This document shows positions 8,912-63,138 of a stretch of DNA of 64,000 nt, piece by piece. The stretch lies in NCBI GenBank assembly GCA_018268955.1, contig JAFDVO010000008.1, positions 22,988 to 86,987 on the forward strand, given 5' to 3'. How positions within the stretch are numbered: position 1 is the first letter of the stretch; each line of letters opens with the position of its first letter. The stretch comes from Acidobacteriota bacterium (lineage in GTDB: Bacteria; Acidobacteriota; Vicinamibacteria; Vicinamibacterales; CAVVIG01). The position numbers and the translations under genes were made by a program. The notes under the pieces were generated by a model. It worked only from the letters and a program-made list of their open reading frames with translations, made no database searches and had not been told where the DNA came from.

Positions 8912-8921
8912 GGATCTGACA

Positions 8922-8993
8922 GGCCATGGGCGATGGGCGACAGGCCGCGCCCGCAGTCGTGACGGGCCTGCGGCCCATGCCGATTGCCATCAG
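8922..8993. repeat. GGCNNTG heptamer run with an imperfect inverted partner
   Basis: Starts 11 nt after TGA 8909-8911: ggccatg ggcgatg ggcgaca ggccgcg. A downstream partial reverse complement follows (gcctgcggcccatgccgattgccatc). Confidence 0.6.
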
Positions 8994-9016
8994 TGCTTCT
9001 GTACCCTGAGGTCAAT

Positions 9017-11272
9017 GTGCGACGCGCGTGTCTGACCACGATCCTCGCTGCGCTGGCTGCGACCGCGGCCGCCCAGCAGCCCCCTGACCCCGTTCCACCG
9101 GCGATCATCGCGAGAAACGAGGCCCGACAGGCGACCGTTCGGGCGGTGAAGCTCGACGAGCCGCTGCGCATCGACGGCCGTCTGGACGAGGCGATCTACT
9201 CGTCGATCACGCCGATCACGGACTTCATCCAGACGCTGCCTCGGAACGGCGAGGATCCGACCGAGAAGACCGAAGCGTGGGTGATGTTCGACGGCGAGCG
9301 GTTCTACGTCGCTGCCCGCTGCTGGGACTCGGCGCCGCCAGCGAAATGGGTCGCCAACGAGATGCGCCGCGATGCGAATCAGGTCCGGCAGAACGATCAC
9401 TTCGGCTTCATGATCGACACGTTCCACGATCGGCGGAACGGGTACGTCTTCTACTCGAACCCGGTCGGCGGCCGCATCGATCTCACCGAAGCGGACGAGG
9501 GGAACTCGAACGCCGACTGGAACCCGGTCTGGGAAGTGCGCACCGGCCGCTTCGAGGGCGGCTGGACGATCGAGATGGCCGTGCCGTTCAAGTCGATCCG
9601 CTACATCTCCGGCGAAGGCCAGACGTGGGGCATCCAGATGCGCCGGGCGATCCGCCGGAAGAACGAGTGGGCGCACCTCACGCCGCTGCCGACCGTGATG
9701 GGGGGATCCCAGGGGTTCTTCAGGATCTCGGCCGCCGCGACGCTGGTCGGGCTCGACCTGCCGCCGGCCAGCCGGAACATCGAGTTGAAGCCCTACGGCA
9801 TCGCACGCTCGACAACGGATCGCGTCGCGTCACCGCTCGTGAACAACAAGGGTGAAGGAGACTTCGGCGTCGACGCGAAGTACGGCATCACCGCCAACCT
9901 CACCGCCGACTTCACGTACAACACCGACTTCGCACAGGTCGAAGTGGACGAGCAGCAGGTGAACCTCACCCGTTTCTCGCTGCAGTTTCCTGAGAAGCGG
10001 GAGTTCTTCCTCGAGGGACGCGGCATCTTCAGCTTCGCGTCGTTCCCAACCACTGGTTCATCAGGCGGTGGGTCATCGACGAGCACCGTCCCGCTGCTGT
10101 TCTACAGCCGGCGCATCGGCCTGAACGGCGGGCGCGTAGTTCCGATCAACGTGGGCGGACGCGTGACCGGCAAGGTCGGCAAGTTCAGCCTCGGACTGCT
10201 GAACATCCAGACCGGCGAGGAGTCGGCCTCGAAGTCGCCGTCGACGAACTTCAGTGTTGTCCGCGTGAAGCGCGACGTCTTCCGGCGGAGCGCGATCGGC
10301 GCCATGGTCACGAACCGCTCGCAGTCCGCTGACGTGCCGGGGGCCGCGAACCAGGCGTACGGCCTGGACGGGGTGTTCAACTTCTTCGGCGACCTCACGA
10401 TGGGCGGCTACTACGCGCGCACGGAGACCGACAACGTGAGCGGCGACGGCTCCAGCTACCAGGCGCGCGTCGAGTACGCGCCGGACAAGTACGGTGCGCA
10501 GTTCGAGCGGGTCAAGGTCGGCGACGCGTTCAACCCGGAGGTCGGCTTCCTGCGGCGACGCAACTTCGAGCGCACGTTCGGCGAAGTGCGCTACAGCCCG
10601 CGGCCCAAACGCATCAGAGGCATTCGCCAGGTCACGATGACGGCGGGCGTGGAGTACATCGAGGGCAGCACGTCGAAGCGCATGGAGTCGCGGCAGCAGA
10701 CCGGGCGCATCAACGTGGAGCGGGAGAACAGCGACCAGTTCTCCTTCGAAGGCGGCACGAACTTCGAGTTCCTGCCGTCGCCGTTCAGGGTCGCACGCAA
10801 CGTCACGATTCCGTCCGGCGGCTACGGGTTCAACGACTGGACGGCGCGCTACGCGTTCGGTCAGCAGCGGCGGATCTCAGGCACCGTGCAGTTCCAGAAG
10901 GGGCAGTTCTACAACGGGCACATCAACGCGCTCACTGTGAGCGGCGCGCGCGTGTCGGTGATGACCCGCCTCTCGGTCGAGCCGAGCGTCTCGGTGAATG
11001 CGGTCACGCTGCCGGCGGGCGACTTCACGACCACCGTGCTGCGCGCCAGGTCCGACTACGCGTTCTCGCCGTTGATGTTCGTAAGCGGCCTGGTGCAGTA
11101 CAGCTCGAACGACCGGCTCTTCTCGACCAACCTGCGCTTCCGCTGGGAATACCTGCCGGGCAGCGAGCTCTTCGTCGTCTACACCGACGAGCGCGACACG
11201 ATACCTGTTGGTTTCCCGACGCTGAAGAACCGCGCGCTGGTCGTGAAGGTGAATCGGCTGTTCAGGTTCTAA
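9017..11272 (+). CDS. DUF5916 family protein with CBM9-like domain (paralog 3)
   Basis: Lies in ORF 8984-11272, which has a TTG start. I prefer GTG 9017 because it gives the signal peptide MRRACLTTILAALAATAAAQQ and clears the upstream repeat. Same conserved blocks; C-terminus NRLFRF. Confidence 0.85.
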   Translation: MRRACLTTILAALAATAAAQQPPDPVPPAIIARNEARQATVRAVKLDEPLRIDGRLDEAIYSSITPITDFIQTLPRNGEDPTEKTEAWVMFDGERFYVAARCWDSAPPAKWVANEMRRDANQVRQNDHFGFMIDTFHDRRNGYVFYSNPVGGRIDLTEADEGNSNADWNPVWEVRTGRFEGGWTIEMAVPFKSIRYISGEGQTWGIQMRRAIRRKNEWAHLTPLPTVMGGSQGFFRISAAATLVGLDLPPASRNIELKPYGIARSTTDRVASPLVNNKGEGDFGVDAKYGITANLTADFTYNTDFAQVEVDEQQVNLTRFSLQFPEKREFFLEGRGIFSFASFPTTGSSGGGSSTSTVPLLFYSRRIGLNGGRVVPINVGGRVTGKVGKFSLGLLNIQTGEESASKSPSTNFSVVRVKRDVFRRSAIGAMVTNRSQSADVPGAANQAYGLDGVFNFFGDLTMGGYYARTETDNVSGDGSSYQARVEYAPDKYGAQFERVKVGDAFNPEVGFLRRRNFERTFGEVRYSPRPKRIRGIRQVTMTAGVEYIEGSTSKRMESRQQTGRINVERENSDQFSFEGGTNFEFLPSPFRVARNVTIPSGGYGFNDWTARYAFGQQRRISGTVQFQKGQFYNGHINALTVSGARVSVMTRLSVEPSVSVNAVTLPAGDFTTTVLRARSDYAFSPLMFVSGLVQYSSNDRLFSTNLRFRWEYLPGSELFVVYTDERDTIPVGFPTLKNRALVVKVNRLFRF

Positions 11273-11273
11273 G

Positions 11274-11336
11274 GGCCATGGGCGCTGGTCGGTAGTCCGT
11301 GGGCAGGCTCTTGGCTCCGGACTTCTGGCTTCAGCG
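11274..11336. repeat. Degenerate in-phase heptamer run after the stop codon
   Basis: Starts 2 nt after TAA 11270-11272: ggccatg ggcgctg gtcggta gtccgtg ggcaggc tcttggc tccggac ttctggc ttcagcg. Confidence 0.5.
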
Positions 11337-11401
11337 CGGTCGACTCCTGGCCCGGGGCCGCGGGACGAAAAGCGCCACCACGGAGAGCACGGAGCTCGAC
11401 A

Positions 11402-11563
11402 TGGAGCGCACTGGCTTCGCTTGTGGCTAACGCGCGCGACTACGACCGTAGCTGGCGGGAGGTGGAGCAGCAGAAGGACGAACTGCTCGATGAAGTGCAG
11501 CGTCGAATGCTCACCTATGTCGAACGTGCTGAGTTGTTCACGGTCCGCTTCGTCGTGAGCTGA
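11402..11563 (+). pseudogene. Orphan 3' fragment of an unidentified gene (54 codons to TGA, no start codon)
   Basis: Frame 2 reads WSALASLVANARDYDRSWREVEQQKDELLDEVQRRMLTYVERAELFTVRFVVS*. It looks like coding sequence but has no upstream start. It sits just before a decayed restriction-enzyme-like gene. Confidence 0.3.
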
Positions 11564-11595
11564 CTCCGGTAGACGCTGACGCTGCCGTCCGTCAC

Positions 11596-12013
11596 ATGTC
11601 GAATAAAGAACGATTCTTCGACGAGTTTCGCTGATATGTCGACCGCGTGGACATGACCGCCTCGGGGTTCGCTGCGGACCGACTCCGAGGCGCTGGACGG
11701 TCCCGATATCGTGCCGACGTGGAACGACATCGAGGTGCCAGATGCCTCTGCTGTGCTCGACGCCTGGGAGCTGTTCGACGCGCCGGCGAACACCAGCCGT
11801 CGCTGCCCGCACCGATCTACGACTACGTCGTGTACGAGTCGGAAGTGGAGCGCGAGTTCGCGCGCAGGCTGGATGCGCGTGCGCGAGACCAAGAGCACGC
11901 GCGACTTCCTGAAGCTGCGGAACAGCGAGGCCGACAAGGTCCGCTGCGGGGCGCGCCACTTCGAGGCGCTCGGCGTGCCGTTCGGCGTCGTCGTCAGCGC
12001 CGACGAAGTGTGA
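11596..12013 (+). pseudogene. Decayed type III restriction enzyme Res/helicase-like gene: 12-codon N-terminus plus frameshifted C-terminal pieces
   Basis: ATG 11596 gives MSNKERFFDEFR and then a stop. Downstream pieces sit in two frames: PAPIYDYVVYESEVEREFARRLDAR (frame of ORF 11647) and ETKSTRDFLKLRNSEADKVRCGARHFEALGVPFGVVVSADEV (frame of ORF 11711). By recall these resemble Res-subunit C-termini. G+C is locally lower around 11590-11640. Confidence 0.5.
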
Positions 12014-12143
12014 GCGCCAGGCATCCGCTCGAGGCTGGTCGCCGTCCCGACGCAGCGCCGAGCCCGCCTCGAATGGAGTGCGTGTGACGGGCCAAGCGGA
12101 GTCGGGATGCGGCCGGCCCGACTGCAGGACGCCTGGCGGGCGT

Positions 12144-12213
12144 CAAGGCTCCAGGCGTCAGGCACCGTCGACTCCTGGCCCGGAGCCGACATGCCCGAAG
12201 CCTGAAGCCTGAA
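12144..12213. repeat. In-phase heptamer run; on the minus strand it reads TTCAGGC TTCAGGC TTCGGGC ... downstream of the cupin gene
   Basis: Plus-strand units are caaggct ccaggcg tcaggca ccgtcga ctcctgg cccggag ccgacat gcccgaa gcctgaa gcctgaa. That is ten units in one phase. Confidence 0.55.
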
Positions 12214-12230
12214 AACGCGCGCAGCGCGTG
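12212..12230 (-). terminator. Possible small intrinsic terminator of the cupin gene
   Basis: Minus strand directly after the stop reads ACGCGC-TGC-GCGCGT followed by TTTTC. The stem is 6 bp and the loop only 3 nt, so this is weak. Confidence 0.35.
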
Positions 12231-12231
12231 G

Positions 12232-12753: not shown

Positions 12754-12895
12754 ACGCGCTCCATGCACGTCCCGCTGAAGCCGGACGCTACGACATCGAA
12801 TCCCGGACGTCGGGCGAAGCCCGACGCGACGACCGATCTCACCAACCTCCAACCCGTCCCCTACCCGGCAGGGACTGTAGCCCGGCGCCGTGCTT

Positions 12896-12944
12896 CGCCC
12901 AGAGCCGACCCGCCGGAAGCCCAGGGCTCGAAGCCGGAAGTCTA
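12896..12944. repeat. Heptamer run abutting and including the cyclase stop codon
   Basis: Units are agccgac ccgccgg aagccca gggctcg aagccgg aagtcta. The last unit contains the stop (cta, 12942-12944). In the gene's sense it reads TAGACTT CCGGCTT CGAGCCC TGGGCTT. Confidence 0.5.
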
Positions 12945-13984: not shown

Positions 13985-16831
13985 ATGCCCGCATCGTTCG
14001 CGCTGCCCGCGGCCTTCTTTCTCTCAGGCGCCGCAGGGCTCATGTTCCAGGTGGTCTGGCTCTATCGCTGCGGCCTCGTCCTCGGGAGCAGCCTCCCGGC
14101 TGTCACGGTCGTCCTCTCTGCGTTCATGGCCGGGGTTGGCGCAGGCAGCGCCGCGGCTGCGCGCGCCGGCGATCGGGTTGCGCATCCCATCCGTGCGTAC
14201 ATCACGCTCGAACTCCTGGTCGCCATCACAGGCATCGCCGTCAGCGTGTTGCTGCCGCACGTCGGGGCAGTCGTGGGTCGCGTGACTCACCTGACGACTT
14301 CCGCGGCGACCCTCAATGCAGCACGGCTGGCCATCGCGTTCGGGTTGCTCATCGTGCCAGCGGGCGCCATGGGAGCGACGTTGCCGCTGCTCGTTTCCGT
14401 GCTGGCGAAGCGGGGAGCGGCGTTCGGTCCCGCACTGGGTCGGCTCTACGGTTGGAACACGCTCGGGGCGGTGGTCGGCGTGATCGGTGCAGAAGTCCTC
14501 TTCATCGGCGCGGCTGGTGTGACCGGCACGGCGTGCGCCGCCGCAGGCCTCAACCTGTGCGCGGCTTTGCTCGCAGGTTCGATTCGATCGGCTGACGCCG
14601 ACGAGATCCCGAACGCGGGACACCAGCAGGACGAGCAGCGTGCTGGCACGCCGCAGGACCGCGGCGCGGTCCGCTGGTTGCTCCTGTCCACTGCCGTCGC
14701 CGGTGGCGCGCTGCTCGGGCTCGAGGTGGTCTGGTTCCGCTTCCTGTCGATGTACGTGCTCGTCACCACGCTCGCCACGAGCGTGATGCTGGCAGCCGTA
14801 CTCTCCGGCATCGGCGTTGGCGGCATCGTCGGCGCAATCTGGCTCGGTCGTGGACGCAACGCCGCGACGTGGTTGGCAGTGCTGGCCTGCGCGACCGGGC
14901 TCAGTGTGATCGGCTCGTTCACCTTGTTCAGCTTCGTCACCCAGGGCACGCAAGTCGGCGCATGGACCAGCGTCCTGTGGTTCGCGTGCGAGCTGACCGT
15001 GATCACGTCGCTGCTTTCCGGAGCGTTGTTCACGCTGACCGGCGACGCGCTGCACCGAACCGGGCTTGGCGCTGCCGAGGCGACCGGCTCACTGGCTCTT
15101 GCGAACACACTCGGCGCCATCGTCGGTCCCGCGCTGGCCACATGGGTGCTGCTGCCCAACCTTGGGATCAAGGGGAGCATCACCACCTTCGCACTCGCCT
15201 ACGGCATCGTCGGCGCACTCGCCGCGCTGGGCCTTCGCGTCCGGCGCGCTCCCATCGCCATGCGCCGCGTTCCGTCACTGGTGATGGGCGCCGTGCTGGC
15301 TGTCGGTGTGGCACTCCTTCCGCTCGGCGCAGCAGACTCGGCGTATTTCCTGCGCGCCGCTGCTGCGTATGCGGACGATGGTTCCGAGGTCGTGGCGACG
15401 CGCGAGGGCACTGCCGAGACGCTGTTCGTCATGCAGCAGCGGTGGCTCGGTCGGCCCGTGTACAGCCGTCTGGTCACGAACGGCTTTTCGATGTCCGGCA
15501 CCGCCCTGCAGGGGCAGCGGTACATGCGTGGGTTCGCATACTACCCGATGCTCTTTCACGACGGTCCTCTCCGGAATGCGTTGGTCGTCTGCTACGGCGT
15601 TGGGGTGACCGTCGGCGCCGTCACGCACATCCCGTCGGTCGAAACCATCGATGTGGTCGAGATCTCACGCGAGATACCGGAGCTGAGCGACGTGATCTAC
15701 GAGGCCGGTTCGCGCCCGCTCGAGGACCCGCGCGTACGCCTCCATACGGAAGACGGCCGCTTCTTCCTGCAGACCACCGCCGACGCGTTCGACCTCATCA
15801 CCGGTGAGCCGCCGCCGCCTCGCACGCCAGGGACGGTGAACATCTACACGCGCGAGTACTTCGAGCTGGTGCGGAGCCGCCTGCGCGAAGGAGGCATCGC
15901 CACCTACTGGGTGCCGGTGGCTCGCCCCAACCCGGGCACGGACGTCAACACGATCGTCAAGGCGTTCTGTGACGTGTTCAGCGACTGCTCGCTGTGGAAT
16001 GCGACGCCATTCGACCTGATGCTGGTCGGTTCGCGTGGCACGACAGGGCCGAGGTCGCTTGCGGACCTCTCCCGGCCCTGGCAGACACCGGGGCTCGAGG
16101 CGCGGCTGCGGGAAGTGGCCTTGGAGCGGCCGGAGCAGATCGGCGCGACGTTCATCGGGGATGCCGCGTACCTGAAGACCCTCACCCAGGAGACGCCGCC
16201 GCTGGTAGACGACTTCCCGCAGCGTCTGCGTCCGCACCCTGGACGTCCGTCGCTGTCGGATCCGGGTTACGGCCGCGATCAGGCGGTCACGACGATGTAC
16301 GACTCGGTGCTGAGCGTGGAGCGGGCGCGCACGGCGTTCTCGACCTCGGCGTTCGTGCGGGGGCTGTTTCCGCCCGACCTCATCGAGCGGTCGCTGCCGT
16401 ACTTCGAGCAGCAGCGGATCATCAACCGCGTCTACTGGGAAGGCGGCCAGCCGCTGCGCCAGATCGAGGACCTCGACGGCGTGTTGTCCGGCACGACCCT
16501 TCGCACGCTGCCGTTGTGGATCCTCGGGAGCGACGAGGTGAAGCAGCGCATCGCGGAAACCACGCGCGACGATGTGAGTGGTGCGGTGGAATATGCCCGC
16601 GCGCTGCGTGCGTTGTCAGGACGGGACTTCGCCGGCGCCTCACGCTGGCTGTCGGTGGCACTCGAGCGCGGATTCACCGGCCCCACGGCCAGCCCACTGC
16701 TGGCCTACGCGTCGATGAAGAGCGGCAACACGGTGCTCGCGCAGCAGCTTGCCGCAGCCGCGCACGCCTCTTCAGACGACGAACGGCACTTCTGGGCGTG
16801 GATGGGGAAGGCGTTGGACGGCAGACGTTAG
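13985..16831 (+). CDS. Fused MFS-like membrane domain / spermidine-synthase-like domain protein with a helical-repeat C-terminal region
   Basis: Lies in ORF 13874-16831. ATG 13985 gives MPASFALPAAFFLSGAAGLMFQVVWLYR, typical of this fused family by recall. About 12 helices are followed by a methyltransferase-fold region (VVCYGVGVTVGA...DLITGEPPPP). Confidence 0.8.
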   Translation: MPASFALPAAFFLSGAAGLMFQVVWLYRCGLVLGSSLPAVTVVLSAFMAGVGAGSAAAARAGDRVAHPIRAYITLELLVAITGIAVSVLLPHVGAVVGRVTHLTTSAATLNAARLAIAFGLLIVPAGAMGATLPLLVSVLAKRGAAFGPALGRLYGWNTLGAVVGVIGAEVLFIGAAGVTGTACAAAGLNLCAALLAGSIRSADADEIPNAGHQQDEQRAGTPQDRGAVRWLLLSTAVAGGALLGLEVVWFRFLSMYVLVTTLATSVMLAAVLSGIGVGGIVGAIWLGRGRNAATWLAVLACATGLSVIGSFTLFSFVTQGTQVGAWTSVLWFACELTVITSLLSGALFTLTGDALHRTGLGAAEATGSLALANTLGAIVGPALATWVLLPNLGIKGSITTFALAYGIVGALAALGLRVRRAPIAMRRVPSLVMGAVLAVGVALLPLGAADSAYFLRAAAAYADDGSEVVATREGTAETLFVMQQRWLGRPVYSRLVTNGFSMSGTALQGQRYMRGFAYYPMLFHDGPLRNALVVCYGVGVTVGAVTHIPSVETIDVVEISREIPELSDVIYEAGSRPLEDPRVRLHTEDGRFFLQTTADAFDLITGEPPPPRTPGTVNIYTREYFELVRSRLREGGIATYWVPVARPNPGTDVNTIVKAFCDVFSDCSLWNATPFDLMLVGSRGTTGPRSLADLSRPWQTPGLEARLREVALERPEQIGATFIGDAAYLKTLTQETPPLVDDFPQRLRPHPGRPSLSDPGYGRDQAVTTMYDSVLSVERARTAFSTSAFVRGLFPPDLIERSLPYFEQQRIINRVYWEGGQPLRQIEDLDGVLSGTTLRTLPLWILGSDEVKQRIAETTRDDVSGAVEYARALRALSGRDFAGASRWLSVALERGFTGPTASPLLAYASMKSGNTVLAQQLAAAAHASSDDERHFWAWMGKALDGRR

Positions 16832-16879
16832 ACGTTGGACGTTAGAACTTAGAACTCAGAAGTCAGAATGCAGAACGTC
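16824..16879. repeat. In-phase heptamer run beginning inside the last codons of the upstream gene
   Basis: Units are gacgtta gacgttg gacgtta gaactta gaactca gaagtca gaatgca gaacgtc. The gene stop TAG is at 16829-16831, and a second in-frame TAG at 16850. A weaker periodic tail extends to about 16928. Confidence 0.75.
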
Positions 16880-17011
16880 GGTGGGTCAGTCAGTCCCGCC
16901 CGCCTTGCCCGCCCAGCCTGCCCTTTCAGGACCACTCGCTGTCTTCGCGTGTCCGTGACCTCCGTGGTAGTGCCGTTGGCCGCGATTGCGGCGCGACCCG
17001 CGCGATCCGTC

Positions 17012-17095
17012 CAGAGCCCAGAGCCCCGAGCCCGCAGCCCAAAGCCCGCAGCCCAAAGCCTATGGCCCATGGCCCAGCGCCCACCGCCCATTGCC
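17012..17095. repeat. Twelve in-phase heptamers, NNNNGCC on plus and GGCNNNG in the sense of the peroxidase gene
   Basis: Units are cagagcc cagagcc ccgagcc cgcagcc caaagcc cgcagcc caaagcc tatggcc catggcc cagcgcc caccgcc cattgcc. The array ends 11 nt from the stop codon at 17107-17109. Confidence 0.85.
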
Positions 17096-17106
17096 CTCGA
17101 CGGGTG

Positions 17107-18009
17107 TCAGCGAGCGGAGGAGAGTGTCCTGAGGAACGCCACGAGGTCCCGCTTGTCCTCGTCAGGGAGATCCAGGCGCTGCATGTCGCGATCGAGGTTC
17201 GGGTTCGGACGGCCGCCGCGGTCGTAGTAGTCGACGACCTCTTCGAGCGTCGCGAGGGATCCGTCGTGCATGTAAGGCGCTGTCCTGCCGACCTCTCGCA
17301 GCGTCGGTGTCTTGAACGCGCCGCGGTCTTCAGGCTTGCCCGTCACCTCGAATGCCCCGTCATCGACAAAGCGGCCCGACGCTCCTGCCTCGGACGAGGC
17401 GGGCACCCACGCGATGCCGGTATTGTGCAGCTTCTCGTCCGTGAAGTTCGTGCCGACGTGGCACATCAGGCAGTTGCCGCGTCCCTGGAACACGCGCAGG
17501 CCGTTACGTTCCTGTGCTGACAGCGCGCTGCGCTCCCCGTTGTTGAAGCGGTCATAGCGCGTGTCGCCGGACATCTGCGCGCGCACGTAGGTGGCGAGTG
17601 CCGCGGCGATCTTGTCGACAGGCAGTTCCACCCTTTGCGAGGCTTCTTCAAGAGTGAGATCCATCTCGTTTGGATCCTGAATGGGCATCAGGACCTGCTG
17701 TTCGAGCGTCGCAGCGCGCCCATCCCAGAAGAACACGCGTCCCCACACGCGATTAAGGATCGTCGGCGAGTTGCGTCGACCCTTGCGACCGAATACGCCA
17801 GGGGACACAGCGTCCGGCTTCGTGAACGCGCGCTCCGGATCGTGGCAGGAGGTGCACGCGATCGTGCCGTCTTTCGACAGGCGTGTATCCGCGAAGAGCC
17901 GCCGCCCGAGCTCAATCTTCTCCGGCGTGATCGGATTCGCTTCAGGGACCGGCAGCGTGGTGCCGAGGCCGAGCGGGATCGCGACTGCGGCGAGTGCCAG
18001 GAGCCTCAC
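17107..18009 (-). CDS. Di-haem cytochrome c peroxidase (CCP/MauG family)
   Basis: 300-aa ORF with a GTG start. Two CxxCH motifs (CTSCHDPERAF and CLMCHVG), a signal peptide, and the conserved tail PYMHDGSLATLEEVVDYY. Confidence 0.9.
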   Translation of the reverse strand: MRLLALAAVAIPLGLGTTLPVPEANPITPEKIELGRRLFADTRLSKDGTIACTSCHDPERAFTKPDAVSPGVFGRKGRRNSPTILNRVWGRVFFWDGRAATLEQQVLMPIQDPNEMDLTLEEASQRVELPVDKIAAALATYVRAQMSGDTRYDRFNNGERSALSAQERNGLRVFQGRGNCLMCHVGTNFTDEKLHNTGIAWVPASSEAGASGRFVDDGAFEVTGKPEDRGAFKTPTLREVGRTAPYMHDGSLATLEEVVDYYDRGGRPNPNLDRDMQRLDLPDEDKRDLVAFLRTLSSAR

Positions 18010-18034
18010 GAGGGGATCTTACGCCGCGGGCAGA

Positions 18035-18285
18035 GGCTCCAGGCTCCGGACTTCGGGCTCCGGTCGTTGTCGGCTGCGGGCAAGGATCGGCAGGCAGGGG
18101 GAGGGCGGGGCAGGCAGGCGGTCAGGGCTGGTGGGGCTGGTGGGGCTGGTGGGACTGATGCGGGCTTCAGGCTCCAGACCTCGGGCTTCAGGCCGGTCGG
18201 CTTCAGGCCGGACACCACGAGTGTCGCAGCCGGAAGCCGACAAGGCCGAGAGCCTGTAGCCTGGAGCCCAGAGCCTGAAGTTCGG
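18035..18285. repeat. Composite array: heptamers, three perfect 9-mers, then inverted GGCTTCA/TGAAGCC arms
   Basis: Heptamers from 18035: ggctcca ggctccg gacttcg ggctccg. GGCTGGTGG occurs three times at 18126-18152. Then gggcttcaggctccagacctcgggcttcaggccggtcggcttcaggccgg faces ccggaagccgacaaggccgagagcctgtagcctggagcccagagcctgaag. Confidence 0.7.
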
Positions 18286-18290
18286 TGCGC

Positions 18291-21380: not shown

Positions 21381-21500
21381 TCTTCCTCCCAGGGAATGGT
21401 GGTGCACTGAAACAAGCGCACGGATGTTTGCACACGGCACGATCGGTCGCAACGACAAGTTGCGACACATCTGTCGCTGCGCGCGTCACTCTCCGTAGAA

Positions 21501-21740
21501 TTGGATGCGATGGCGGGCGACCGATCGGAGGGGCTGCGGATCTGGCGGCTTCGCAAGCGGCAGTTGTATGTGGACGCCGAACTGCGGCCAGCACCAGACA
21601 CAGGGGAATGGGACCTGCTGGTCTACTACGGGACGACGCTCACATCGTCGAAGCGCTTCGCCACGCGGAACGAGGCGGTCGACGAGGGGCGTGCGCGAAG
21701 GGCGGAGCTGGAGCGGGAGGGGTGGACGTTCCACTGGTAA
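21501..21740 (+). CDS. Small hypothetical protein (79 aa, or 76 aa from ATG 21510)
   Basis: The ORF has a high third-position G+C pattern consistent with coding. No family recognised. It ends ...LEREGWTFHW. The start codon is uncertain (TTG 21501 or ATG 21510). Confidence 0.5.
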   Translation: MDAMAGDRSEGLRIWRLRKRQLYVDAELRPAPDTGEWDLLVYYGTTLTSSKRFATRNEAVDEGRARRAELEREGWTFHW

Positions 21741-21766
21741 CGCACATTAGAGCAGTGTGCGTTACC
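21736..21766 (+). terminator. 11-bp perfect hairpin overlapping the stop codon of the small ORF
   Basis: ggtaacgcaca (21736-21746) pairs with tgtgcgttacc (21756-21766) around a 9-nt loop. There is no U-tract, so terminator function is only a guess. Confidence 0.4.
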
Positions 21767-21784
21767 AATGAAGCGTCCGAGAGA

Positions 21785-21875
21785 GGCTACAGACTGCTGG
21801 CTCCAGGCTCCGGGCCGAGTCGGCTCCGGCCTGAAGCCGACCAACCCTGAAGCCCGGAGCCCGAAGCCTGGAGCC
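21785..21875. repeat. Thirteen in-phase heptamers, mirror-symmetric between two convergent genes
   Basis: Units are ggctaca gactgct ggctcca ggctccg ggccgag tcggctc cggcctg aagccga ccaaccc tgaagcc cggagcc cgaagcc tggagcc. Positions 21799-21814 pair with 21860-21875 (16 bp, 1 mismatch). The array ends 1 nt from the stop at 21877. Confidence 0.85.
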
Positions 21876-21876
21876 T

Positions 21877-23164: not shown

Positions 23165-23812
23165 CTACGGACGTGCGGACGTGACCGGCGCCTGGCAGTC
23201 GCGATCCCGGTTGACGCGAATGGGCCACCAGCGATCGAAGCCGTTCTCGGTGGCGCCGATCACCAGCACCGGCGAGATCAGCGCCGGGTCGTACTCGCCG
23301 ATGCCGGCCTGCTCCGGATGCTCGGGGATCAGGCTGACCCGCAACTGGTTGAACCCGGCCGACTCGAACGGCACGAAGTACAGGTCGGCTCGTCCCTCGG
23401 CGCCGTCCACCGTCTGGTGCGCCAGGCAGACCGGCTCGAACGCCTTGCCGCCGTCGAGCGCCGCATCCGCTGCCATGCGGTGGATCGAGTCCACGCCAAA
23501 GGCGCCCTGCAGCGCCTCATCGAATTCCGAGCGCAGGACGAGCGGGATTGCCGGGTGTGCAGGGGCGACGAGCGCGGCGCCCGCCCGCCTGGATACCTCG
23601 GCAAACAGCGAGGCGGTCAGCGTGTCCGGCGGCTTCACCGCGACAATCCACGGGTCGGTCCCATCACTCGTCACGAGCGTCCACCGCTCCGGCACCGTGG
23701 GTGCCACCTGCACCGGTGTCGAATCGACGCGATGGGTCACGTACCACGCGAGTGCGCCCCCGATGACGACGAGCAGCAGCAGGATGGGCAGGGCACGGCG
23801 CGCCAGGGACAT
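23165..23812 (-). CDS. Hypothetical membrane-anchored protein
   Basis: 215-aa ORF with one N-terminal helix (ALPILLLLVVIGGALAWYV). No family recognised. Confidence 0.6.
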   Translation of the reverse strand: MSLARRALPILLLLVVIGGALAWYVTHRVDSTPVQVAPTVPERWTLVTSDGTDPWIVAVKPPDTLTASLFAEVSRRAGAALVAPAHPAIPLVLRSEFDEALQGAFGVDSIHRMAADAALDGGKAFEPVCLAHQTVDGAEGRADLYFVPFESAGFNQLRVSLIPEHPEQAGIGEYDPALISPVLVIGATENGFDRWWPIRVNRDRDCQAPVTSARP

Positions 23813-23836: not shown

Positions 23837-23948
23837 GAAATGCAGAAATGCACAAATGCAGAAATGCACAGGTGCAGAAACGCACAGACGCAGAAGCGCA
23901 CAGACGCAGAAACGCACGACCGCTGAAGTGCACACATGCGGAAGCGCC
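23837..23948. repeat. Fourteen in-phase octamers (GAAAYGCA/CAnAYGCA), alternating with a 16-nt super-period
   Basis: Units are gaaatgca gaaatgca caaatgca gaaatgca caggtgca gaaacgca cagacgca gaagcgca cagacgca gaaacgca cgaccgct gaagtgca cacatgcg gaagcgcc. Confidence 0.85.
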
Positions 23949-23976
23949 CGGCCCCGGAGACGATGGCGGAGACGCT

Positions 23977-24075
23977 GGAATGCAGGAAGGATGGAGGGGG
24001 AGATTGGAGGGTGGAGGTTGGGGTTGGAGTGGGGAACACCGGCTCCCTGCCCCGACCTCAGACCTCCGTCCTCTG
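23977..24075. repeat. G-rich TGGAGGN heptamers facing a C-rich partner (GACCTCN)
   Basis: G-rich side: ggaatgc aggaagg atggagg gggagat tggaggg tggaggt tggggtt ggagtgg. C-rich side: ccctgccccgacctcagacctccgtcctctgcc. The two sides are imperfectly complementary. Confidence 0.65.
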
Positions 24076-24096
24076 CCTTCGCTCGTGCCGCGAGCG

Positions 24097-29428: not shown

Positions 29429-29444
29429 CTGGCGGCGACACGGC

Positions 29445-29645
29445 AACGCAGGAACGCAAGAACGCAGAAACGCAAAAACGCAGGAACGCAGGAACGCAGG
29501 AACGCAACGCAAGAACGCAGGAACGCAAGAACGCAAGACAGCGCGCTGGAAGATTCACGCAGTCACGCACGAGCGATTGCAGCATTCGTGCGCTCCTGTG
29601 AGCGTGCATTGTTGCATTCCTGCATTCCCGCATTCCCGCATTCCC
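29445..29645. repeat. ~200-nt imperfect palindromic element whose arms are octamer arrays
   Basis: Left arm 29445-29538 has twelve units of AACGCARR/ACGCARGA. A central bulged hairpin lies around 29556-29604. Right arm 29606-29645 has five units of GCATTCCY, whose reverse complement (RGGAATGC) matches the left unit at 6-7 of 8 positions. The element fills the gap between convergent stops at 29428 and 29651. Confidence 0.85.
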
Positions 29646-34361: not shown

Positions 34362-34452
34362 GGCGGAGGGCAGAGGTCAGGTCGGAGGTTGGAGGTCGGA
34401 GGTTGGGCCCAGAGCCCGGAGGCTGAAGCCCGGAGCCCGAAATCTCCAGGTT
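34362..34452. repeat. Thirteen in-phase heptamers starting at the first base after the stop codon
   Basis: Units are ggcggag ggcagag gtcaggt cggaggt tggaggt cggaggt tgggccc agagccc ggaggct gaagccc ggagccc gaaatct ccaggtt. The first half is GGAGGTY in the sense of the plus gene. The second half reads GGGCTYC in the sense of the minus-strand tRNA. Confidence 0.8.
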
Positions 34453-34464
34453 CTTGCGTGCTGA

Positions 34465-34972: not shown

Positions 34973-35084
34973 GAGTGAACTGCCGGTACTGCCTCCGCCG
35001 AGGCTCCGGCTGGTCTCGCCGAAGCGTAGGCGCGAAGGCTGAGTTCATCGGCCTACCATCCAGTAGCTCCTGACAGGGGGAACC

Positions 35085-44007: not shown

Positions 44008-44027
44008 GTGCGCCGACGATTCTACCG

Positions 44028-44909
44028 TCAATCCTCGCCGTTCCGCGGTGGTGGCTCCAGGTGAATCACGGCGTCGACAATCTGCGGGTACCGGCTCATG
44101 ACCCGGTCTTTGACGACGTGCGAGATGTCGTGTGCATCAGTGAGTCGCATGTCCGCGGGCAGCCACACGTGGAAATCGAGGAAGACGTGGTCCGCCGATC
44201 CGCGCGTGCGGATCTGATGGCACCCGAGCACACCCTCGACGCTCATCACCACCTGCTCGATGTCCGCCTCCGACATGACGATGCGGTCGCTCAGGATCTT
44301 CGTGGTCGTCAGGGCGATCTGGTAGCCGGAGTACCCGATGAACGCGGCCACGACGAGCGCCGCGAGCGGGTCGAGCACCGGCACGCCCGCCCGCGCTCCG
44401 GCCAGCGCGACGATCACCGTCACCGACGAGAACACATCGCCGCGCGTCTGCGTCGCATCGGCCAGCAACACCTCGCTGCCCAGCGCCTCGGCGGCGGCTG
44501 ACTCGTAGCGCACAACGATGACGTTCACGATGACCGTCAGGATCATCACGGCGAACCCGGATGCCGTGATGTCGGGCGGAGCCGACCGTCCCGTGAGGTG
44601 GTTGAAGGCGTTGCGGAGCACCTCGAGCATCACCAGCCCGAGGAACGCGACTACGCCGACGGCCGCCATCGTCTCGTACTTGCGATGACCGTAGGGGTGG
44701 TCTTCGTCCGGTGGGCGCCTCGCGGCGTACACGCCGACGAGCCCCACGACGTTCGATGCGGTATCCGTCAGCGAGTGGAAGCCATCGGACAGGATGCTGA
44801 TCGCACCGCTCGAGTACCCGTACGCGATCTTCGCGAGCGCGACGGCGAGGTTGAGGAAGAGGACGCGCGTCAGGACCCGCGCGACCCCCGCGTACCGCTC
44901 AGAAGACAC
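44028..44909 (-). CDS. Cation diffusion facilitator family transporter
   Basis: GTG start. Six helices, a HSLTDTASN-type motif, and a C-terminal cytoplasmic domain (HVWLPADMRLTDAHDISH). Confidence 0.85.
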   Translation of the reverse strand: MSSERYAGVARVLTRVLFLNLAVALAKIAYGYSSGAISILSDGFHSLTDTASNVVGLVGVYAARRPPDEDHPYGHRKYETMAAVGVVAFLGLVMLEVLRNAFNHLTGRSAPPDITASGFAVMILTVIVNVIVVRYESAAAEALGSEVLLADATQTRGDVFSSVTVIVALAGARAGVPVLDPLAALVVAAFIGYSGYQIALTTTKILSDRIVMSEADIEQVVMSVEGVLGCHQIRTRGSADHVFLDFHVWLPADMRLTDAHDISHVVKDRVMSRYPQIVDAVIHLEPPPRNGED

Positions 44910-53442: not shown

Positions 53443-54180
53443 ATGCCGCCGGTCCTCCTGTCCGTCGTGATTCCCGCCTACAACGAGGAGCGTCGCCTCG
53501 GCGCCACGCTCGTCACGGTCGCGGAGTACCTGCGAGAACAGCCCTGGGACTGGGAAATCCGTGTCGTCGACGACGGATCGGCCGATGGCACCGTGCGCGT
53601 TGCGGAGGCCGCAGCCTCGCAAGAGGGGAGGATTGTCGTCCAGCGTGAGCCTCACCGGGGAAAGGGCGGGGCCGTGAAGGCGGGACTGATGGCAGCACGG
53701 GGTGAGTTCAGGTTCATCTGCGATGCCGACCTCTCGATGCCGATCGCCGAGATCGCTCGATTCCTGCCCCCCGAGGCGCCCCCTTTCGACGTGGCAATCG
53801 GATCGCGGGAAGGGCTGCGCGCCAGGCGCGTGGGCGAGCCCGCCTACCGGCACATTGCGGGGCGCGCGTTCAACCTCGGGGTTCAGTGGCTCGTGCTGCC
53901 AGGGATCGAGGACTCACAGTGTGGGTTCAAGATGTTCACGGCAGCAGCCGTGAAGTCGATCTTCCCCCGTGTCACTGTGGATGGTTGGGCCTTCGATGTC
54001 GAGGTGCTCGCGATCGCCCGCGCCCAGAAGCTCCGCATCGTCGAACTGCCGATCGAGTGGCACTACCGCGCCGAGTCGCGCCTGAACATGCTCCGCGATG
54101 GATGGCAGATGCTGAAGGAACTGCTGCGGATCCGATTGAGGTCGATGCGAGGACGATACCGTTCCGAGGTTGGAAGCTAG
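53443..54180 (+). CDS. Family 2 glycosyltransferase (polyprenyl-phosphate glucosyl/hexosyl synthase-like)
   Basis: Contains LSVVIPAYNEERRLG, VDDGSADGT and ICDADLS. Confidence 0.85.
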   Translation: MPPVLLSVVIPAYNEERRLGATLVTVAEYLREQPWDWEIRVVDDGSADGTVRVAEAAASQEGRIVVQREPHRGKGGAVKAGLMAARGEFRFICDADLSMPIAEIARFLPPEAPPFDVAIGSREGLRARRVGEPAYRHIAGRAFNLGVQWLVLPGIEDSQCGFKMFTAAAVKSIFPRVTVDGWAFDVEVLAIARAQKLRIVELPIEWHYRAESRLNMLRDGWQMLKELLRIRLRSMRGRYRSEVGS

Positions 54181-54361
54181 AACTCAGAAGTCAGAACTGG
54201 GCCCGCATCGGTTCCAAGGCTCAGCCCGTCCGCCCAACCCCAACGCCCCAACCTCCAACCTCCAACCTCCAACCTCCAACCTCCAACCTCCACCCTCCAA
54301 CCTCCGACCTCCAACCTCCGACCTCCAACCTCCGACCTCCGACGTTCGTGCGCTGACCTCT
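54180..54361. repeat. 26-unit single-phase heptamer lattice (GAAnTCA drifting to AACCTCC/GACCTCC)
   Basis: Begins at the last base of stop TAG 54178-54180: gaactca gaagtca gaactgg gcccgca tcggttc caaggct cagcccg tccgccc aacccca acgcccc. Then come aacctcc x5, accctcc, and aacctcc/gacctcc alternating x7. It ends gacgttc gtgcgct gacctct. Confidence 0.9.
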
Positions 54362-54372
54362 GAGGGGGGTGC

Positions 54373-55476: not shown

Positions 55477-55477
55477 C

Positions 55478-57841: not shown

Positions 57842-58516
57842 TCAGTGGATGTAAGGGATGAGACGCCAGCGGACGACCCTTCGGTACTCGAGGTAGCGAT
57901 TGCCGCACTGCGACGTCAGGCCCGCTTCTTCGAAGGGCATCGCTATCAGGAGGTAGGCGGTCGTGACCGTGGCGAACAGGAGCCGGTCGCCGGTCATCAC
58001 CGGCGTGCCGAAGAAGATGAGCACCCAGCCCGAGTAGAGCGGGTGGCGGACGAACCGGTATGGCCCGTCATGCTGCAGCACGTCGGTCGGCTTCGGCTCG
58101 GCGAGTCCGGCCAGTTCGCTGACGCTGATCTTCCTGACGCACAGGATGCTGAGTGCGATGCCGGCCACCTGCGCCGAGAGCAGCAGCACGTGCATGGCGC
58201 CAGACGCGTGATACACATCGACACCGATGGGGACCCAGAGCCAGGTCACCGCCATCAGCAGCAGGCTGGCCACCCACACATAGGCGCTCCGTACGAGATC
58301 GGCAGGCACCCACTTTGTCACCCACCGCTTCGCAGCAGGGCGCGCGAGCAGGCTGTGGTGCAGGGCGAACACCGTCAGCAGCCCAGTGTCTGCCGACGCC
58401 GCGCGCAGGGCGTGCCCGCCGCTCGTGACGTCCGACAGGTGCATCCACCACCAGCCGACACGCACGACGGCTGCCACGAATAGCACGAGCCCGATGCGTT
58501 TGATTGCCGGCTTCAT
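57842..58516 (-). CDS. ICMT/PEMT-like membrane methyltransferase family protein
   Basis: Lies in ORF 57842-58519 (TTG); ATG 58516 preferred (MKPAIKRIGLVLFVAAVV). Motif RHPLYSGWVLIFFG. Multi-helix. Confidence 0.7.
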   Translation of the reverse strand: MKPAIKRIGLVLFVAAVVRVGWWWMHLSDVTSGGHALRAASADTGLLTVFALHHSLLARPAAKRWVTKWVPADLVRSAYVWVASLLLMAVTWLWVPIGVDVYHASGAMHVLLLSAQVAGIALSILCVRKISVSELAGLAEPKPTDVLQHDGPYRFVRHPLYSGWVLIFFGTPVMTGDRLLFATVTTAYLLIAMPFEEAGLTSQCGNRYLEYRRVVRWRLIPYIH

Positions 58517-58588
58517 CAATTCACCAACTCACCAATTCACCAACTCACGAATTCACCAACTCACCAACTCACCAATTCACCAATTCCC
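58517..58588. repeat. Nine in-phase octamers CAAYTCAC abutting a start codon in a divergent 5'/5' spacer
   Basis: Units are caattcac caactcac caattcac caactcac gaattcac caactcac caactcac caattcac caattccc. On the minus strand the last unit reads GGTGAATTG immediately before ATG 58516. Confidence 0.9.
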
Positions 58589-58623
58589 TGTGCTCGGTCA
58601 CCTGATGCTATAACCAGCCTGTC

Positions 58624-61069: not shown

Positions 61070-61075
61070 CCGACC

Positions 61076-61591: not shown

Positions 61592-61612
61592 TCCCGCCGC
61601 TTTCCAGCACGA

Positions 61613-63082
61613 ATGTCCTCCGAGCCCGGCCCGCCAGAGCACCCCCGATCCACGCTGCCGCCCTGGGCCCGCGTCCTCGATCTGGCGTGCCTGGCCATTG
61701 TCCTGCTCGCAGCGGTGGTTGCCGCCTGGGGCGGATTCCGCATGCGCGTCGGCGGCATCCGGGTGGCGCTCACCTCGCCGTACCGGGTCTTCGCCGTCGC
61801 CGCACTGATCGCGGTCGTTCGACACCTGCTCGTGCCGCGTCCTCCGATCTACGCCGACCTCCCCGGCCGTCTCCGTGCGAACCTTGCGACGACGCCTGCG
61901 CGGACCGCATTCGGCGCGCTGGTCGGCACGCGGCCCGCGATCCTCTTTGTCGGCTACATGGCGGTCGTCGTTTTCGGCTTCGGCGCGGGAGGGCGCGCCC
62001 CGTATCGGCTGTCGGACAACGAGGCCGCCAACCTTCAGGTCCGCTGGGACATGCCGTGGTACTTCGGCATCGCCTCCGAAGGCTACCACTTCAACCCCAA
62101 CTACCACGGCCAGCAGAACGTCGTGTTCTTTCCGGCGTTCCCCATGATCTGGCGCCTGGCCGCGCGGCTGCTCGGTGGGCAGACGATGGCGTACGTGACG
62201 GCGGGAACGGTGGTGGTCTTCGTCTGCTTCTTCGTCGCGCTGACGTACCTCTTCCGCCTGGCGAGGGAACTGACTGGCGAGGATGATCCGGCGCGCTTCA
62301 CGGTGTGGCTGCTCGCGACCTATCCGTTCGCGCTGTTCTACGGCGCGATCTACACCGAGTCGCTGTTCCTGCTCGGTGCGACCGCCGCGTTCTTCCATTT
62401 CCGCCGCCGTGAGTTCGTGGCCGCAGGGCTGTGGGGGCTGCTCGTCGGGCTCACGCGGCCGAACGGCTGCTTTCTCTCCATTCCGCTCGCGTTGATCGCC
62501 ATTGCGCCGTGGCTGCCGCGGTGGCTGAATGGCGGAGCGGACCAGAACATCGAGCGTGAACCAGGGAGAAAGCGGTTCGCTGCGCTGGTGCCGGCCATGC
62601 TGACCTCGGCCATGCCGGGTGTTGGCGTGCTGCTCTACTCGGGGTGGATGTGGTACTTCACCGGCAACCCGCTCCAGTGGGCTGCCGGCCACGCGGCGTG
62701 GGGCCGGGAGTACGTGGGCTTCGCCCCGCTGATTGCCGACCGCTACGACTGGCTGGTGAACGCCGGGCTCTACACGTACTCGACCTACGTGCCGACCGAC
62801 TTCCTCAACACCATCGGCGCGTTCTTCGCGCTCGCGTGTGCAATTCCGGTGGCGCGCCGGCTCGGACTTGCCTACGCCGTGTTCATCCTCATCAACATCC
62901 TGCCGCCGATGGCGGCGGGTGGCATGTTGTCGATGGGGCGGTTCTCGTCCGTGCTGTTCCCCGCGTTCATCTGGTGCTCAACCGTCATTCCAGTGCGGCA
63001 CCGCGCCGGCTGGCTGGCGACGTTCATGGCCATGCAGGCGCTGAACGCCACGCTGTTCTATACGTGGAGAGAGCTCTTCTAG
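61613..63082 (+). CDS. Polytopic GT-C-like membrane protein (PIG-V/mannosyltransferase-like)
   Basis: 489 aa. The block RWDMPWYFGIASEGYHF...VVFFPAFPMIWRL resembles the PIG-V family signature by recall. More than 10 helices. Confidence 0.6.
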   Translation: MSSEPGPPEHPRSTLPPWARVLDLACLAIVLLAAVVAAWGGFRMRVGGIRVALTSPYRVFAVAALIAVVRHLLVPRPPIYADLPGRLRANLATTPARTAFGALVGTRPAILFVGYMAVVVFGFGAGGRAPYRLSDNEAANLQVRWDMPWYFGIASEGYHFNPNYHGQQNVVFFPAFPMIWRLAARLLGGQTMAYVTAGTVVVFVCFFVALTYLFRLARELTGEDDPARFTVWLLATYPFALFYGAIYTESLFLLGATAAFFHFRRREFVAAGLWGLLVGLTRPNGCFLSIPLALIAIAPWLPRWLNGGADQNIEREPGRKRFAALVPAMLTSAMPGVGVLLYSGWMWYFTGNPLQWAAGHAAWGREYVGFAPLIADRYDWLVNAGLYTYSTYVPTDFLNTIGAFFALACAIPVARRLGLAYAVFILINILPPMAAGGMLSMGRFSSVLFPAFIWCSTVIPVRHRAGWLATFMAMQALNATLFYTWRELF

Positions 63083-63138
63083 GCGGTAGGCGATGGGCGA
63101 TGGGCGCCAGGCTCGAGACGCTCGGGCCGCGGCTCTTG
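63083..63138. repeat. GGCNNTG-type heptamer run starting at the first base after the stop
   Basis: After TAG 63080-63082: gcggtag gcgatgg gcgatgg gcgccag gctcgag acgctcg ggccgcg gctcttg. Confidence 0.65.

Follow-up and report, generated by a model that had tools for sequence, protein, structure and literature searches.

Tandem arrays of degenerate 7- and 8-nt units, held in a single phase and beginning at or just past stop codons, occur throughout the intergenic spacers of a 64,000-nt stretch of a Vicinamibacterales (Acidobacteriota) genome, hereafter the window. These arrays are probably heptamer and octamer microsatellites, that is, simple sequence repeats (SSRs) with long motifs, made by slippage and tolerated in the 3′ flanks of genes. 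They are a genome-wide habit of this lineage, which represents an unusually dense and diverse case of heptamer repeats, a kind of repeat without an accepted origin or function. What is new is the host lineage, the multiplicity of unit families, the start of periodicity at the stop codon and the polarity of the sense strand. The stop-codon onset, the G-rich polarity of the sense strand and the turnover of units at a fixed site constrain any model of such repeats, and together these three regularities open hypotheses of a transcription- or translation-coupled origin to test.

Periodic arrays past stop codons

The window has a GC content of 66% and comprises about 6 kb of non-coding and 58 kb of coding DNA. 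Its gene model is based on a codon-usage score, with the genes that flank arrays checked with Pfam. Tandem repeats were listed with Tandem Repeats Finder (TRF), strict segments were defined by at least 85% self-match over four copies, and the 23 gaps of at least 40 nt were compared with dinucleotide shuffles. TRF reports arrays of period 7 or 8 at 8922, 12193, 16812/16844, 17011/17065, 18250, 21846, 23837, 23988/24052, 29445, 29605, 34360/34407, 54179, 54234 (15 copies), 58512 and 63089. Copy numbers range from 2.6 to 15, units stand head to tail without spacers, and most arrays contain 0% indels, which bears out the single phase described in the first-pass annotation of this DNA. The strict segments (six of period 7 and six of period 8) are all non-coding (12/12), and the same scan found none in coding DNA and none at periods 4–6 or 10–13. 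Pooled non-coding DNA gives autocorrelation peaks at lags 7, 8, 14 and 21 (0.343, 0.326, 0.326 and 0.331, against 0.283 in shuffles), and coding DNA shows a 3-base period only. Eleven of the 23 gaps are significant (p ≤ 0.023), with a best period of 7 or 8 in all but one (9, at 18125), and the degenerate arrays at 11273 and 18035, like other re-tested regions, reach a lag-7 p of 0.001. Among the arrays of 7- or 8-nt units (9-nt in one case) claimed at first pass, only that at 12890–12941 fails, being not significant when taken alone (lag-7 p=0.18). Arrays make up approximately 10% of the non-coding bases of the window.

Assembly error does not account for the arrays. Over 16839–18154 the window is matched at 100% identity by an independent Logan assembly, whose own ends fall within arrays, and further assemblies reproduce the arrays. 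Many short-read metagenome contigs also end inside them (L001 at 16839 and 18154; L167–L173; L186–L190), and the arrays are thus break points in public short-read metagenome assemblies of these abundant soil bacteria.

Placement relative to genes was counted over the window and 24 related loci. Arrays are present in 11/28 convergent gaps (39%), 21/91 co-oriented gaps (23%) and 2/33 divergent gaps (6%), one of these last two being due to a missed gene call. In the window alone all convergent gaps bear arrays (5/5 as first annotated), as does one of the five divergent gaps; this last, at 58520, is the sole array-bearing gap that does not touch a gene 3′ end. Where the flanking genes are co-oriented, the array lies closer to the 3′ end of the upstream gene in 19/20 cases (p=4e-5); in 12 cases its distance to the stop is at most 12 nt, where 4.4 such cases would be expected (p=3e-5).

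The onset of periodicity coincides with the stop codon itself. Across 27 stop-proximal arrays, the proportion of bases identical to the base one period further on stays at a background of approximately 0.25 through the last base before the stop, takes the values 0.37, 0.56 and 0.52 over the three bases of the stop, reaches 0.81 at position +3 and then remains near 0.7. The unit headed by the stop matches the following unit at 0.57, compared with 0.32 for the last coding unit. Several arrays repeat the stop out of frame, for example at 16829 in the window (TAGACGT TGGACGT TAGAACT TAGAACT CAGAAGT), in L083 (TAGGCCT TAGGCGA TAGACGA TAAGCGT TGGGCGA) and in L093 (TAGGCCAA in three copies). TAG is the stop at 17/27 array-bearing gene ends, compared with 100/243 overall. 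A device providing backup stops in three frames was considered and rejected: most units (GGCGATG, GGAGGTY, AACGCAGR, GGCTYCR) hold no stop, and although young arrays carry out-of-frame stops, these decay to TGG or CAG, which indicates no sustained selection.

The arrays are also polarised. On the sense strand of the upstream gene G exceeds C in 30/38 stop-proximal arrays and C exceeds G in 5, and the mean GC skew of the first 40 nt past the stop is +0.19 with an array (p=4e-6) and 0.00 without one (5′ flanks, −0.02). A general G-richness of 3′ flanks is rejected, as flanks without arrays have zero skew. Onset at the stop and orientation in the sense of the preceding gene, both proposed at first pass, are therefore strengthened by the tabulation over the window and related loci. 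The proposal that imperfect inverted repeats arise where the arrays of two convergent genes meet is incomplete. Inverted pairs also occur beside a single gene end (18160–18290 and 23975–24096), and the arrays in the convergent gaps 16832–17106 and 54181–54372 are non-complementary. Two gaps need new boundaries: 21471–21876 holds an unnoticed open reading frame (ORF) of 76 amino acids, and 34362–34464 is bounded by a tRNA-Leu gene. The ORF (approximately 21510–21740, + strand) is kept in the relatives L002 and L005 and is called as a gene in strain contigs, so that the remaining gap, 21741–21876, is convergent, with the ORF converging on the Mo-oxidoreductase gene.

The arrays of the window are as follows.

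8922–8948, + strand: lattice of GGCCATG, GGCGATG and GGCGACA, 10 nt past the stop of the DUF5916 gene 6581–8911; TRF match, gap p=0.01, 10 G and 4 C on the sense strand.
11273–11340, + strand: degenerate heptamers passing from GGGCNNT to GGCTYYN, 1 nt past the stop of the DUF5916 gene 8984–11272; lag-7 match 0.54, p=0.001.
12140–12231, − strand: paired GGCTTCR and YGRAGCC arrays that fold into a long hairpin past the cupin stop at 12232; arms at about 12144–12165 and 12193–12213, the latter a TRF match.
12890–12941, − strand: weak GGCTTCS lattice directly past the cyclase stop at 12942.
16812–16876, + strand: about nine units passing from GTTAGAC to AGAACTC; TRF match, lag-7 match 0.74, p=0.001; the lattice takes in the TAG stop of a SpeE-like gene (16829–16831) and two more TAGs, with a stop-unit identity of 6/7.
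17011–17096, − strand: about 12 units passing from GGGCNNT to GGGCTYT, 10 nt past the CCP/MauG stop at 17107; TRF match, lag-7 match 0.70, G-quadruplex-type motifs, identical in the independent assembly.
18035–18065, + strand: four GGCTCCR units, 25 nt upstream of the CCP start; lag-7 match 0.59, p=0.001.
18125–18166, + strand: 4.6 copies of the 9-mer GGGCTGGTG, the sole period-9 case; TRF score 61, gap p=0.003, G-quadruplex motif.
18160–18290, − strand: paired arrays of GGCTYYR and its complement forming a hairpin of about 45 bp, beginning 8–13 nt past the stop (18291) of a TonB-dependent-receptor-like gene; TRF match at 18250–18277.
21780–21876, − strand: AGGCTCC AGGCTTC GGGCTCC GGGCTTC, a loop hairpin and a complementary array, at offset 0 from the Mo-oxidoreductase stop at 21877.
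23837–23947, + strand: 13 octamers GAAAYGCA, 24 nt upstream of the − strand gene 23165–23812; TRF match.
23975–24075, − strand: GGAGGTC units facing CCAACCY units; TRF matches at 23988–24029 and 24052–24073, lag-7 p=0.001; weak fold (z −1.9), with a small hairpin at 24080–24096 between the array and the CsbD stop (24097).
29445–29535, + strand: 11.8 octamers AACGCAGR, 16 nt past the GT2 stop at 29428; TRF score 119.
29605–29645, − strand: five octamers GGGAATGC, 5 nt past the stop of a LysM gene at 29651; TRF match, 15 G and 4 C on the sense strand.
34360–34439, both strands: 6.6 GGAGGTY units (+), starting at the tannase TAG stop, then 4.7 GGGCTYC units (−), facing the 3′ end of tRNA-Leu; TRF match, lag-7 match 0.65.
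54179–54198, + strand: TAGAACT CAGAAGT CAGAACT, taking in the GT2 stop codon with a stop-unit identity of 5/7; TRF match.
54234–54343, − strand: 15 GGAGGTY units (CCAACCT on the + strand), 29 nt past the GT1 stop at 54373; TRF score 163, with short-read contigs breaking inside.
58512–58586, + strand: 9.4 octamers TTCACCAA between divergent genes; TRF score 108–120, gap p=0.003, with 5/8 strain contigs starting inside the array.
63080–63106, + strand: TAGGCGG TAGGCGA TGGGCGA TGGGCG; TRF match, stop-unit identity 6/7, the stop codon heading the first unit and recurring once out of frame.

The TTCACCAA array spans approximately −112 to −38 upstream of the start of a ketoacyl-synthase gene, ahead of a TATAAC-like hexamer (58512–58623). 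It may overlap the promoter of this gene, a situation known from the heptad repeats in the ctx promoter of Vibrio. A CACCAA-type tract resembling it is found at 11070–11100 of L002.

Strain variation and relation to described repeats

The arrays vary in unit number between strains. In 105 kb of strain alignments (≥97% identity) indels occur in arrays and nowhere else. L155 and L163 have an octamer array at 23837 that is shorter by exactly 32 nt (four units), where the flanks are near-identical and the flanking proteins 100% identical. In L181 the array at 29445 numbers six units against about 12 in the window, a difference of 45 nt, again between proteins that are 100% identical. The (CCAACCT)15 array at 54234 shows unit substitutions between strains. 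Differences per kb amount to 5.3 in arrays, 0.9 in coding DNA and 1.3 in other non-coding DNA, rates that are descriptive because strain contigs are not independent samples. Unit-number polymorphism of this kind makes the arrays usable as strain-level variable-number tandem-repeat markers.

Between species the site of an array can persist while its units are replaced. The closest species representatives are Vicinamibacterales metagenome-assembled genomes, to which the CCP/MauG gene is 78% identical, and four loci (L002, L004, L005 and L007) are syntenic with the window at 72–94% amino-acid identity. At the cyclase stop (12942 in the window), a heptamer lattice runs from the stop in five syntenic genomes with differing units: GGCTTCS in the window, 13 GGGATCA/GGGGTCT units in L002 (15082–15163; the GGGNATC G-quadruplex type, as enriched in Xanthomonas), 2.4 GGCGATG in L004, 3.6 GGCGATG in L005 and AATCTGC in L007, where the lattice reaches the ribosome-binding site of the next gene. 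Among metagenomic orthologues with at least 72% identity, about 10/21 have an array after this stop. At the Mo-oxidoreductase, TonB-receptor-like and cupin stops, relatives keep arrays of GGCTYYR type that differ in number and detail. As noted at first pass, a small vocabulary of units recurs at unlinked loci; in the present analysis it comprises GGCTYCR, GGCGATG, GGAGGTY, AGAAYTC and AACGCAGR and recurs also across genomes, with GGCTTCA, GGCGATG, AGAACTC and TTCACCAA-like units found in relatives.

The density of period-7/8 arrays per 100 kb is 26.6 in the window, 16.5 in Vicinamibacterales loci, 7.7 in other unclassified Acidobacteriota, 3.3 in Planctomycetota and 0.5 in Bryobacterales, Solibacter and Terriglobia. 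Inverted pairs of heptamer or octamer arrays are present in other Acidobacteriota and in Pirellulaceae (L058 6447–6581, L026 12893–13040, L062 20199–20268, L064 2370–5264), and hairpins with arms built of tandem repeats therefore extend beyond Vicinamibacterales.

The record of heptamer repeats between genes goes back to 1990 in cyanobacteria and to 2007 for prokaryotes at large, with no agreement on their origin or function. The first-pass view that no described class has these properties was wrong, as repeats of this kind have been published for Xanthomonas and Nostoc (PMC4692102) and across prokaryotes (PMC4060949). Xanthomonas genomes carry approximately 185 heptamer repeats of GGGAATC type each, and Nostoc carries GGGGAYT (GGGGA(C/T)T) repeats (Rehm et al. 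2015, PMC4692102). These are 89–93% intergenic, lie on average 28 nt from the upstream ORF and 160 nt from the downstream one, form convergent inverted pairs in about 70 cases and are under-represented between divergent ORFs; their length and sequence vary between species, they have no tie to gene function, and their function is unknown (PMC4692102). The arrays described here likewise are tandem intergenic heptamers that lie nearer the upstream ORF, form inverted pairs, are rare between divergent ORFs and vary. They differ in having at least six unit families, common octamers, mostly units unable to form G-quadruplexes, a lattice that starts at the stop codon and a host among the Acidobacteriota. 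In Xanthomonas, moreover, the shares on the same and the opposite strand are about equal, 30–35% each (PMC4692102), whereas in the lineage of the window 30 arrays are richer in G on the sense strand and 5 are richer in C there.

Heptamers are an over-represented SSR size for which an origin in polymerase slippage was proposed (Mrazek et al. 2007, as cited in PMC4692102), and 7n3 followed by 8n3 are the over-represented SSR classes across phyla (Huang & Mrazek 2014, PMC4060949). Prokaryote surveys place the SSR excess in intergenic and not in coding DNA (PMC4692102, PMC4060949). The preference for 7-mers and 8-mers and the intergenic excess are shared by the present arrays; the surveys do not report stop-codon onset or sense polarity. 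The 7n3 score has a median of 2.0 in Planctomycetes and is 0 (normal) in Acidobacteria, the latter represented by four genera, none of them Vicinamibacteria (PMC4060949), which makes the present lineage a new, dense case. A limited literature search found no report of such arrays in Acidobacteria. The short tandemly repeated repetitive (STRR) heptamers of cyanobacteria and the TAACTGA repeats of Beggiatoaceae resemble the present arrays in being short tandem heptamers of variable copy number at many unlinked intergenic sites. TAACTGA, however, is one dominant unit whose direct repeats are mostly 5′-proximal, a few nt upstream of start codons (MacGregor 2015, PMC4679880), whereas the arrays of the window follow stops and use many units.

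Slippage as the probable origin, and its alternatives

Of the three roles suggested at first pass, a process of slippage seeded at stop codons has the strongest support, given the unit-number polymorphism, the confinement of all indels to arrays, the in-phase extra stops of young arrays and the differing units at orthologous stops. We infer that slippage generates the arrays and that purifying selection filters them. A 7- or 8-nt segment starting at or just past the stop codon would be duplicated in tandem, and the array would then grow, shrink and drift through slipped-strand mispairing or unequal exchange. Mismatch repair misses loops of 5 nt or longer. Indels of a length not divisible by three would be purged from coding DNA and arrays would be purged from promoter regions, with the result that arrays would survive mainly in 3′ flanks. 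The arrays have the properties of long-motif SSRs (tandem 7–8-nt units in excess of shuffles, found in non-coding DNA only and polymorphic in number between strains), and their placement is that of the Xanthomonas repeats.

Several observations weigh against neutral slippage as a full account. The same units (GGCTYCR, GGCGATG, GGAGGTY, AGAAYTC, AACGCAGR) recur at unlinked loci and across genomes. The strong G-rich polarity of the sense strand is left unexplained by neutral slippage, which also gives no reason to expect so sharp a nucleation at the stop codon, since a duplication taking in up to four coding bases would be just as neutral. In its hairpins GGCTYCR invariably forms the 5′ arm, and no units of 5, 10 or 11 nt occur at the loci of the period-7/8 lineage census. 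As to the data, unit-number polymorphism was seen in only 2–3 arrays, the others being identical across 3–9 contigs, and at the related loci genes were called with a simple codon model, trained on the window, rather than taken from curated annotation. The shared vocabulary, the polarity, the sharp nucleation and the lack of 5-, 10- and 11-mers leave room for a selected role in RNA or for a repeat-generating process coupled to expression.

It is possible, although we consider it unlikely, that the arrays are selected modules of RNA 3′ ends, in which long hairpins without a U tract would terminate transcription bidirectionally or block 3′ exonucleases, as repetitive extragenic palindromic (REP) elements do, and in which tandem units would merely be how stems grow. 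The GGCTYCR family fits this description, consisting of an array and an inverted array that form hairpins of 35–45 bp, 0–18 nt past stops. The predicted − strand folds are −62.2 kcal/mol at 12140–12231 (z −6.8), −80.4 kcal/mol at 18160–18290 (z −6.9) and −71 kcal/mol at 21780–21876 (z −8.1). Orthologous hairpins are kept in L002 and L005 with both arms altered together, including hairpins of varied units at the Mo-oxidoreductase stop, but a unit and its complement pair in any register, which makes such co-variation weak evidence. Canonical U-tract terminators are no commoner than in shuffles (12 sites between 8 and 28 kb, against 8.8 ± 3.0), with none at arrays and no U tract at the GGCTYCR hairpins, and all five initially annotated convergent gaps bear arrays. 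Two of the three GGCTYCR hairpins have only one gene 3′ end beside them and are therefore not simply the arrays of two convergent genes meeting.

Outside this family structure is scarce: many arrays form no hairpin, several are less structured than their shuffles (29429–29560, z +2.8; 54225–54372, z +1.3; gap 16832–17106, z +2.0/+1.1), and those at 63083, 8912 and 34362 have z near 0. The better-folding strand, assessed through G·U strand asymmetry, does not track the transcribed strand, and an array follows the same cyclase stop in only about half of relatives. The hairpin is a property of the GGCTYCR sub-family and not of the class, and as a class-wide feature it was rejected, more than half of the arrays forming none. 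The first-pass idea of U-tract-free terminators or stabilisers accordingly fits the GGCTYCR paired arrays only, the others being significantly unstructured. Judging from the predicted folds, these hairpins plausibly act as U-tract-free transcript 3′-end structures in a secondary role. Hairpin terminators without a U tract, termed I-shaped, have been proposed for high-GC bacteria; the GGCTYCR hairpins resemble them in being GC-rich, right past stops and without a U tract, but have stems of 35–45 bp made of heptamer repeats.

A more speculative proposal, which we hold to be rather doubtful, is that the arrays are the product of a repeat-generating mechanism linked to gene expression, as opposed to ordinary background slippage. 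Nucleation takes place exactly at the point of ribosome release from the mRNA, the non-template strand is the G-rich one and the unit of 7–9 nt is close to the length of the RNA:DNA hybrid of RNA polymerase. Tandem duplication might be driven by R-loops, or by RNA polymerase colliding with the replisome, over the first nucleotides past the translated region, and hairpins and antisense-C-rich tracts could later be co-opted as transcript-end or antisense insulators. If true, an expression-coupled origin would explain why heptamers are the over-represented size of bacterial intergenic repeat.

It is improbable that the arrays serve to set the polarity of Rho action, the G-rich sense strand resisting Rho and the C-rich, unstructured antisense strand loading Rho on antisense or convergent read-through before it reaches the gene 3′ end. 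Rho utilisation (rut) sites are C-rich, G-poor and unstructured, and a spacing of approximately 10–13 nt per subunit is usually quoted for the primary sites of Rho. The gene's own transcript, with G above C in 30 arrays and C above G in 5, does not offer such a site, and this excess together with a skew present only with arrays is what resistance to Rho would predict. The complements of direct arrays, e.g. (CCAACCU)15 and 12 copies of CCAGAGC, are C-rich and unstructured, and arrays are most frequent in convergent gaps. However, a period of 7–8 nt mismatches the quoted spacing, AGAACTC and AACGCAGR are C-rich on neither strand, and arrays that form hairpins would occlude the loading of Rho.

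Another suggestion from the first pass, that the arrays are binding platforms for proteins or ribosomes, is very unlikely. Such multivalent platforms might be Shine-Dalgarno-like GGAGGT arrays that retain terminating ribosomes, or GGA units titrating a CsrA-like factor. A limited vocabulary does recur across loci and genomes, and sense GGAGGTY arrays follow three stops in the window (24097, 34361 and 54373) and also occur in L085–L087. Most families, however, contain neither GGA nor a Shine-Dalgarno motif, each of the six or more unrelated unit families would call for a partner of its own, orthologous stops in sister genomes carry unrelated units, and unit number shifts between strains with identical flanking proteins.

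There is less reason still to regard the arrays as G-quadruplex elements of the GGGNATC type known from Xanthomonas and Nostoc. Five of the six G-quadruplex motifs in the window are non-coding and in or beside arrays, and the 13 GGGATCA/GGGGTCT units of L002 are exactly of the Xanthomonas type. Four tracts of three G are nevertheless found in only 3–4 of approximately 20 window arrays, most unit families lack such tracts, and GGCTYCR, GGAGGTY, AACGCAGR, AGAACTC and TTCACCAA cannot form a G-quadruplex.

That the arrays are dispersed mobile copies resembling REP elements or miniature inverted-repeat transposable elements (MITEs), or else an artefact of assembly or chance, is scarcely credible: the GGCTYCR hairpins share an inner core (GTCGGCTYC...GRAGCCGAC) and a GTAG-headed REP-like hairpin occurs at 12769 and in relatives, but units, copy numbers and flanks differ at each locus, neither terminal inverted repeats nor target duplications were observed, and the arrays recur in independent assemblies, with shuffle p values of 0.001–0.003. 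REP elements and bacterial interspersed mosaic elements (BIMEs) do share with the arrays a location in 3′ flanks and between convergent genes, and the hairpin subset could stabilise mRNA 3′ ends as they do. They are, however, dispersed, near-identical imperfect palindromes of 20–40 nt with a GTAG (more widely GT[AG]G) head, whereas the arrays are phase-locked tandem lattices with locus-specific units, and a scan for GC-rich 7-bp stems with TTCA/TGAA loops gave one intergenic match in the window, at 12769. An origin of the GGCTTCA units from REP-like elements was rejected, given this single hairpin. Nor do the contiguous 7–8-nt units resemble clustered regularly interspaced short palindromic repeats (CRISPR), in which repeats of 23–50 nt alternate with unique spacers of comparable length. 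A search of Rfam returned tRNA-Leu only, over the whole window at the gathering threshold and over 8.8–35.2 kb at E ≤ 0.1.

Other features of the window

The REP-like hairpin is present once in the window (12769–12795), with a consensus of roughly GTAG[CT]G[TC]CCGSCTTCAGSCGGRC. It recurs in spacers of relatives (L002 15170–15200, L004 8520–8570, L005 14860–14890, and L083, L085–L087 and L091), and it has the string GGCTTCAG in common with the commonest heptamer family.

The 76-amino-acid ORF at approximately 21510–21740 ends in GWTFHW* and has a single, faint Pfam match (REase_MTES_1575, E=0.009). A plain hairpin with an 11-bp stem lies 3′ of it, at 21741–21775. The tRNA gene next to the array at 34360–34439 is tRNA-Leu(CAA) (34465–34553, − strand). 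It is followed by a non-coding stretch of 531 nt (34554–35084), upstream of carD, in which no coding signal, periodic array, fold signal (z ~0) or Rfam match was found.

The long apparent gap between a DUF5916 gene and the cupin gene contains the frameshifted remnant of a restriction-endonuclease gene (11423–12087, + strand; 11423–12013 in the gene model), in which the Pfam family RE_endonuc is split over two frames (profile positions 4–36 and 66–104). The stop codons of the 52 genes in the window are TAG in 23, TGA in 23 and TAA in 6.

Five paralogous genes of approximately 760 amino acids encode DUF5916 and CBM9-like domains (4062–6575, 6581–8911, 8984–11272, 24682–26949 and 41698–44031), three of them in tandem. 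The arrays 3′ of 8911 and 11272 have the initial string GGCCATGGGCG in common, and they may share ancestry through duplication of the DUF5916 gene.

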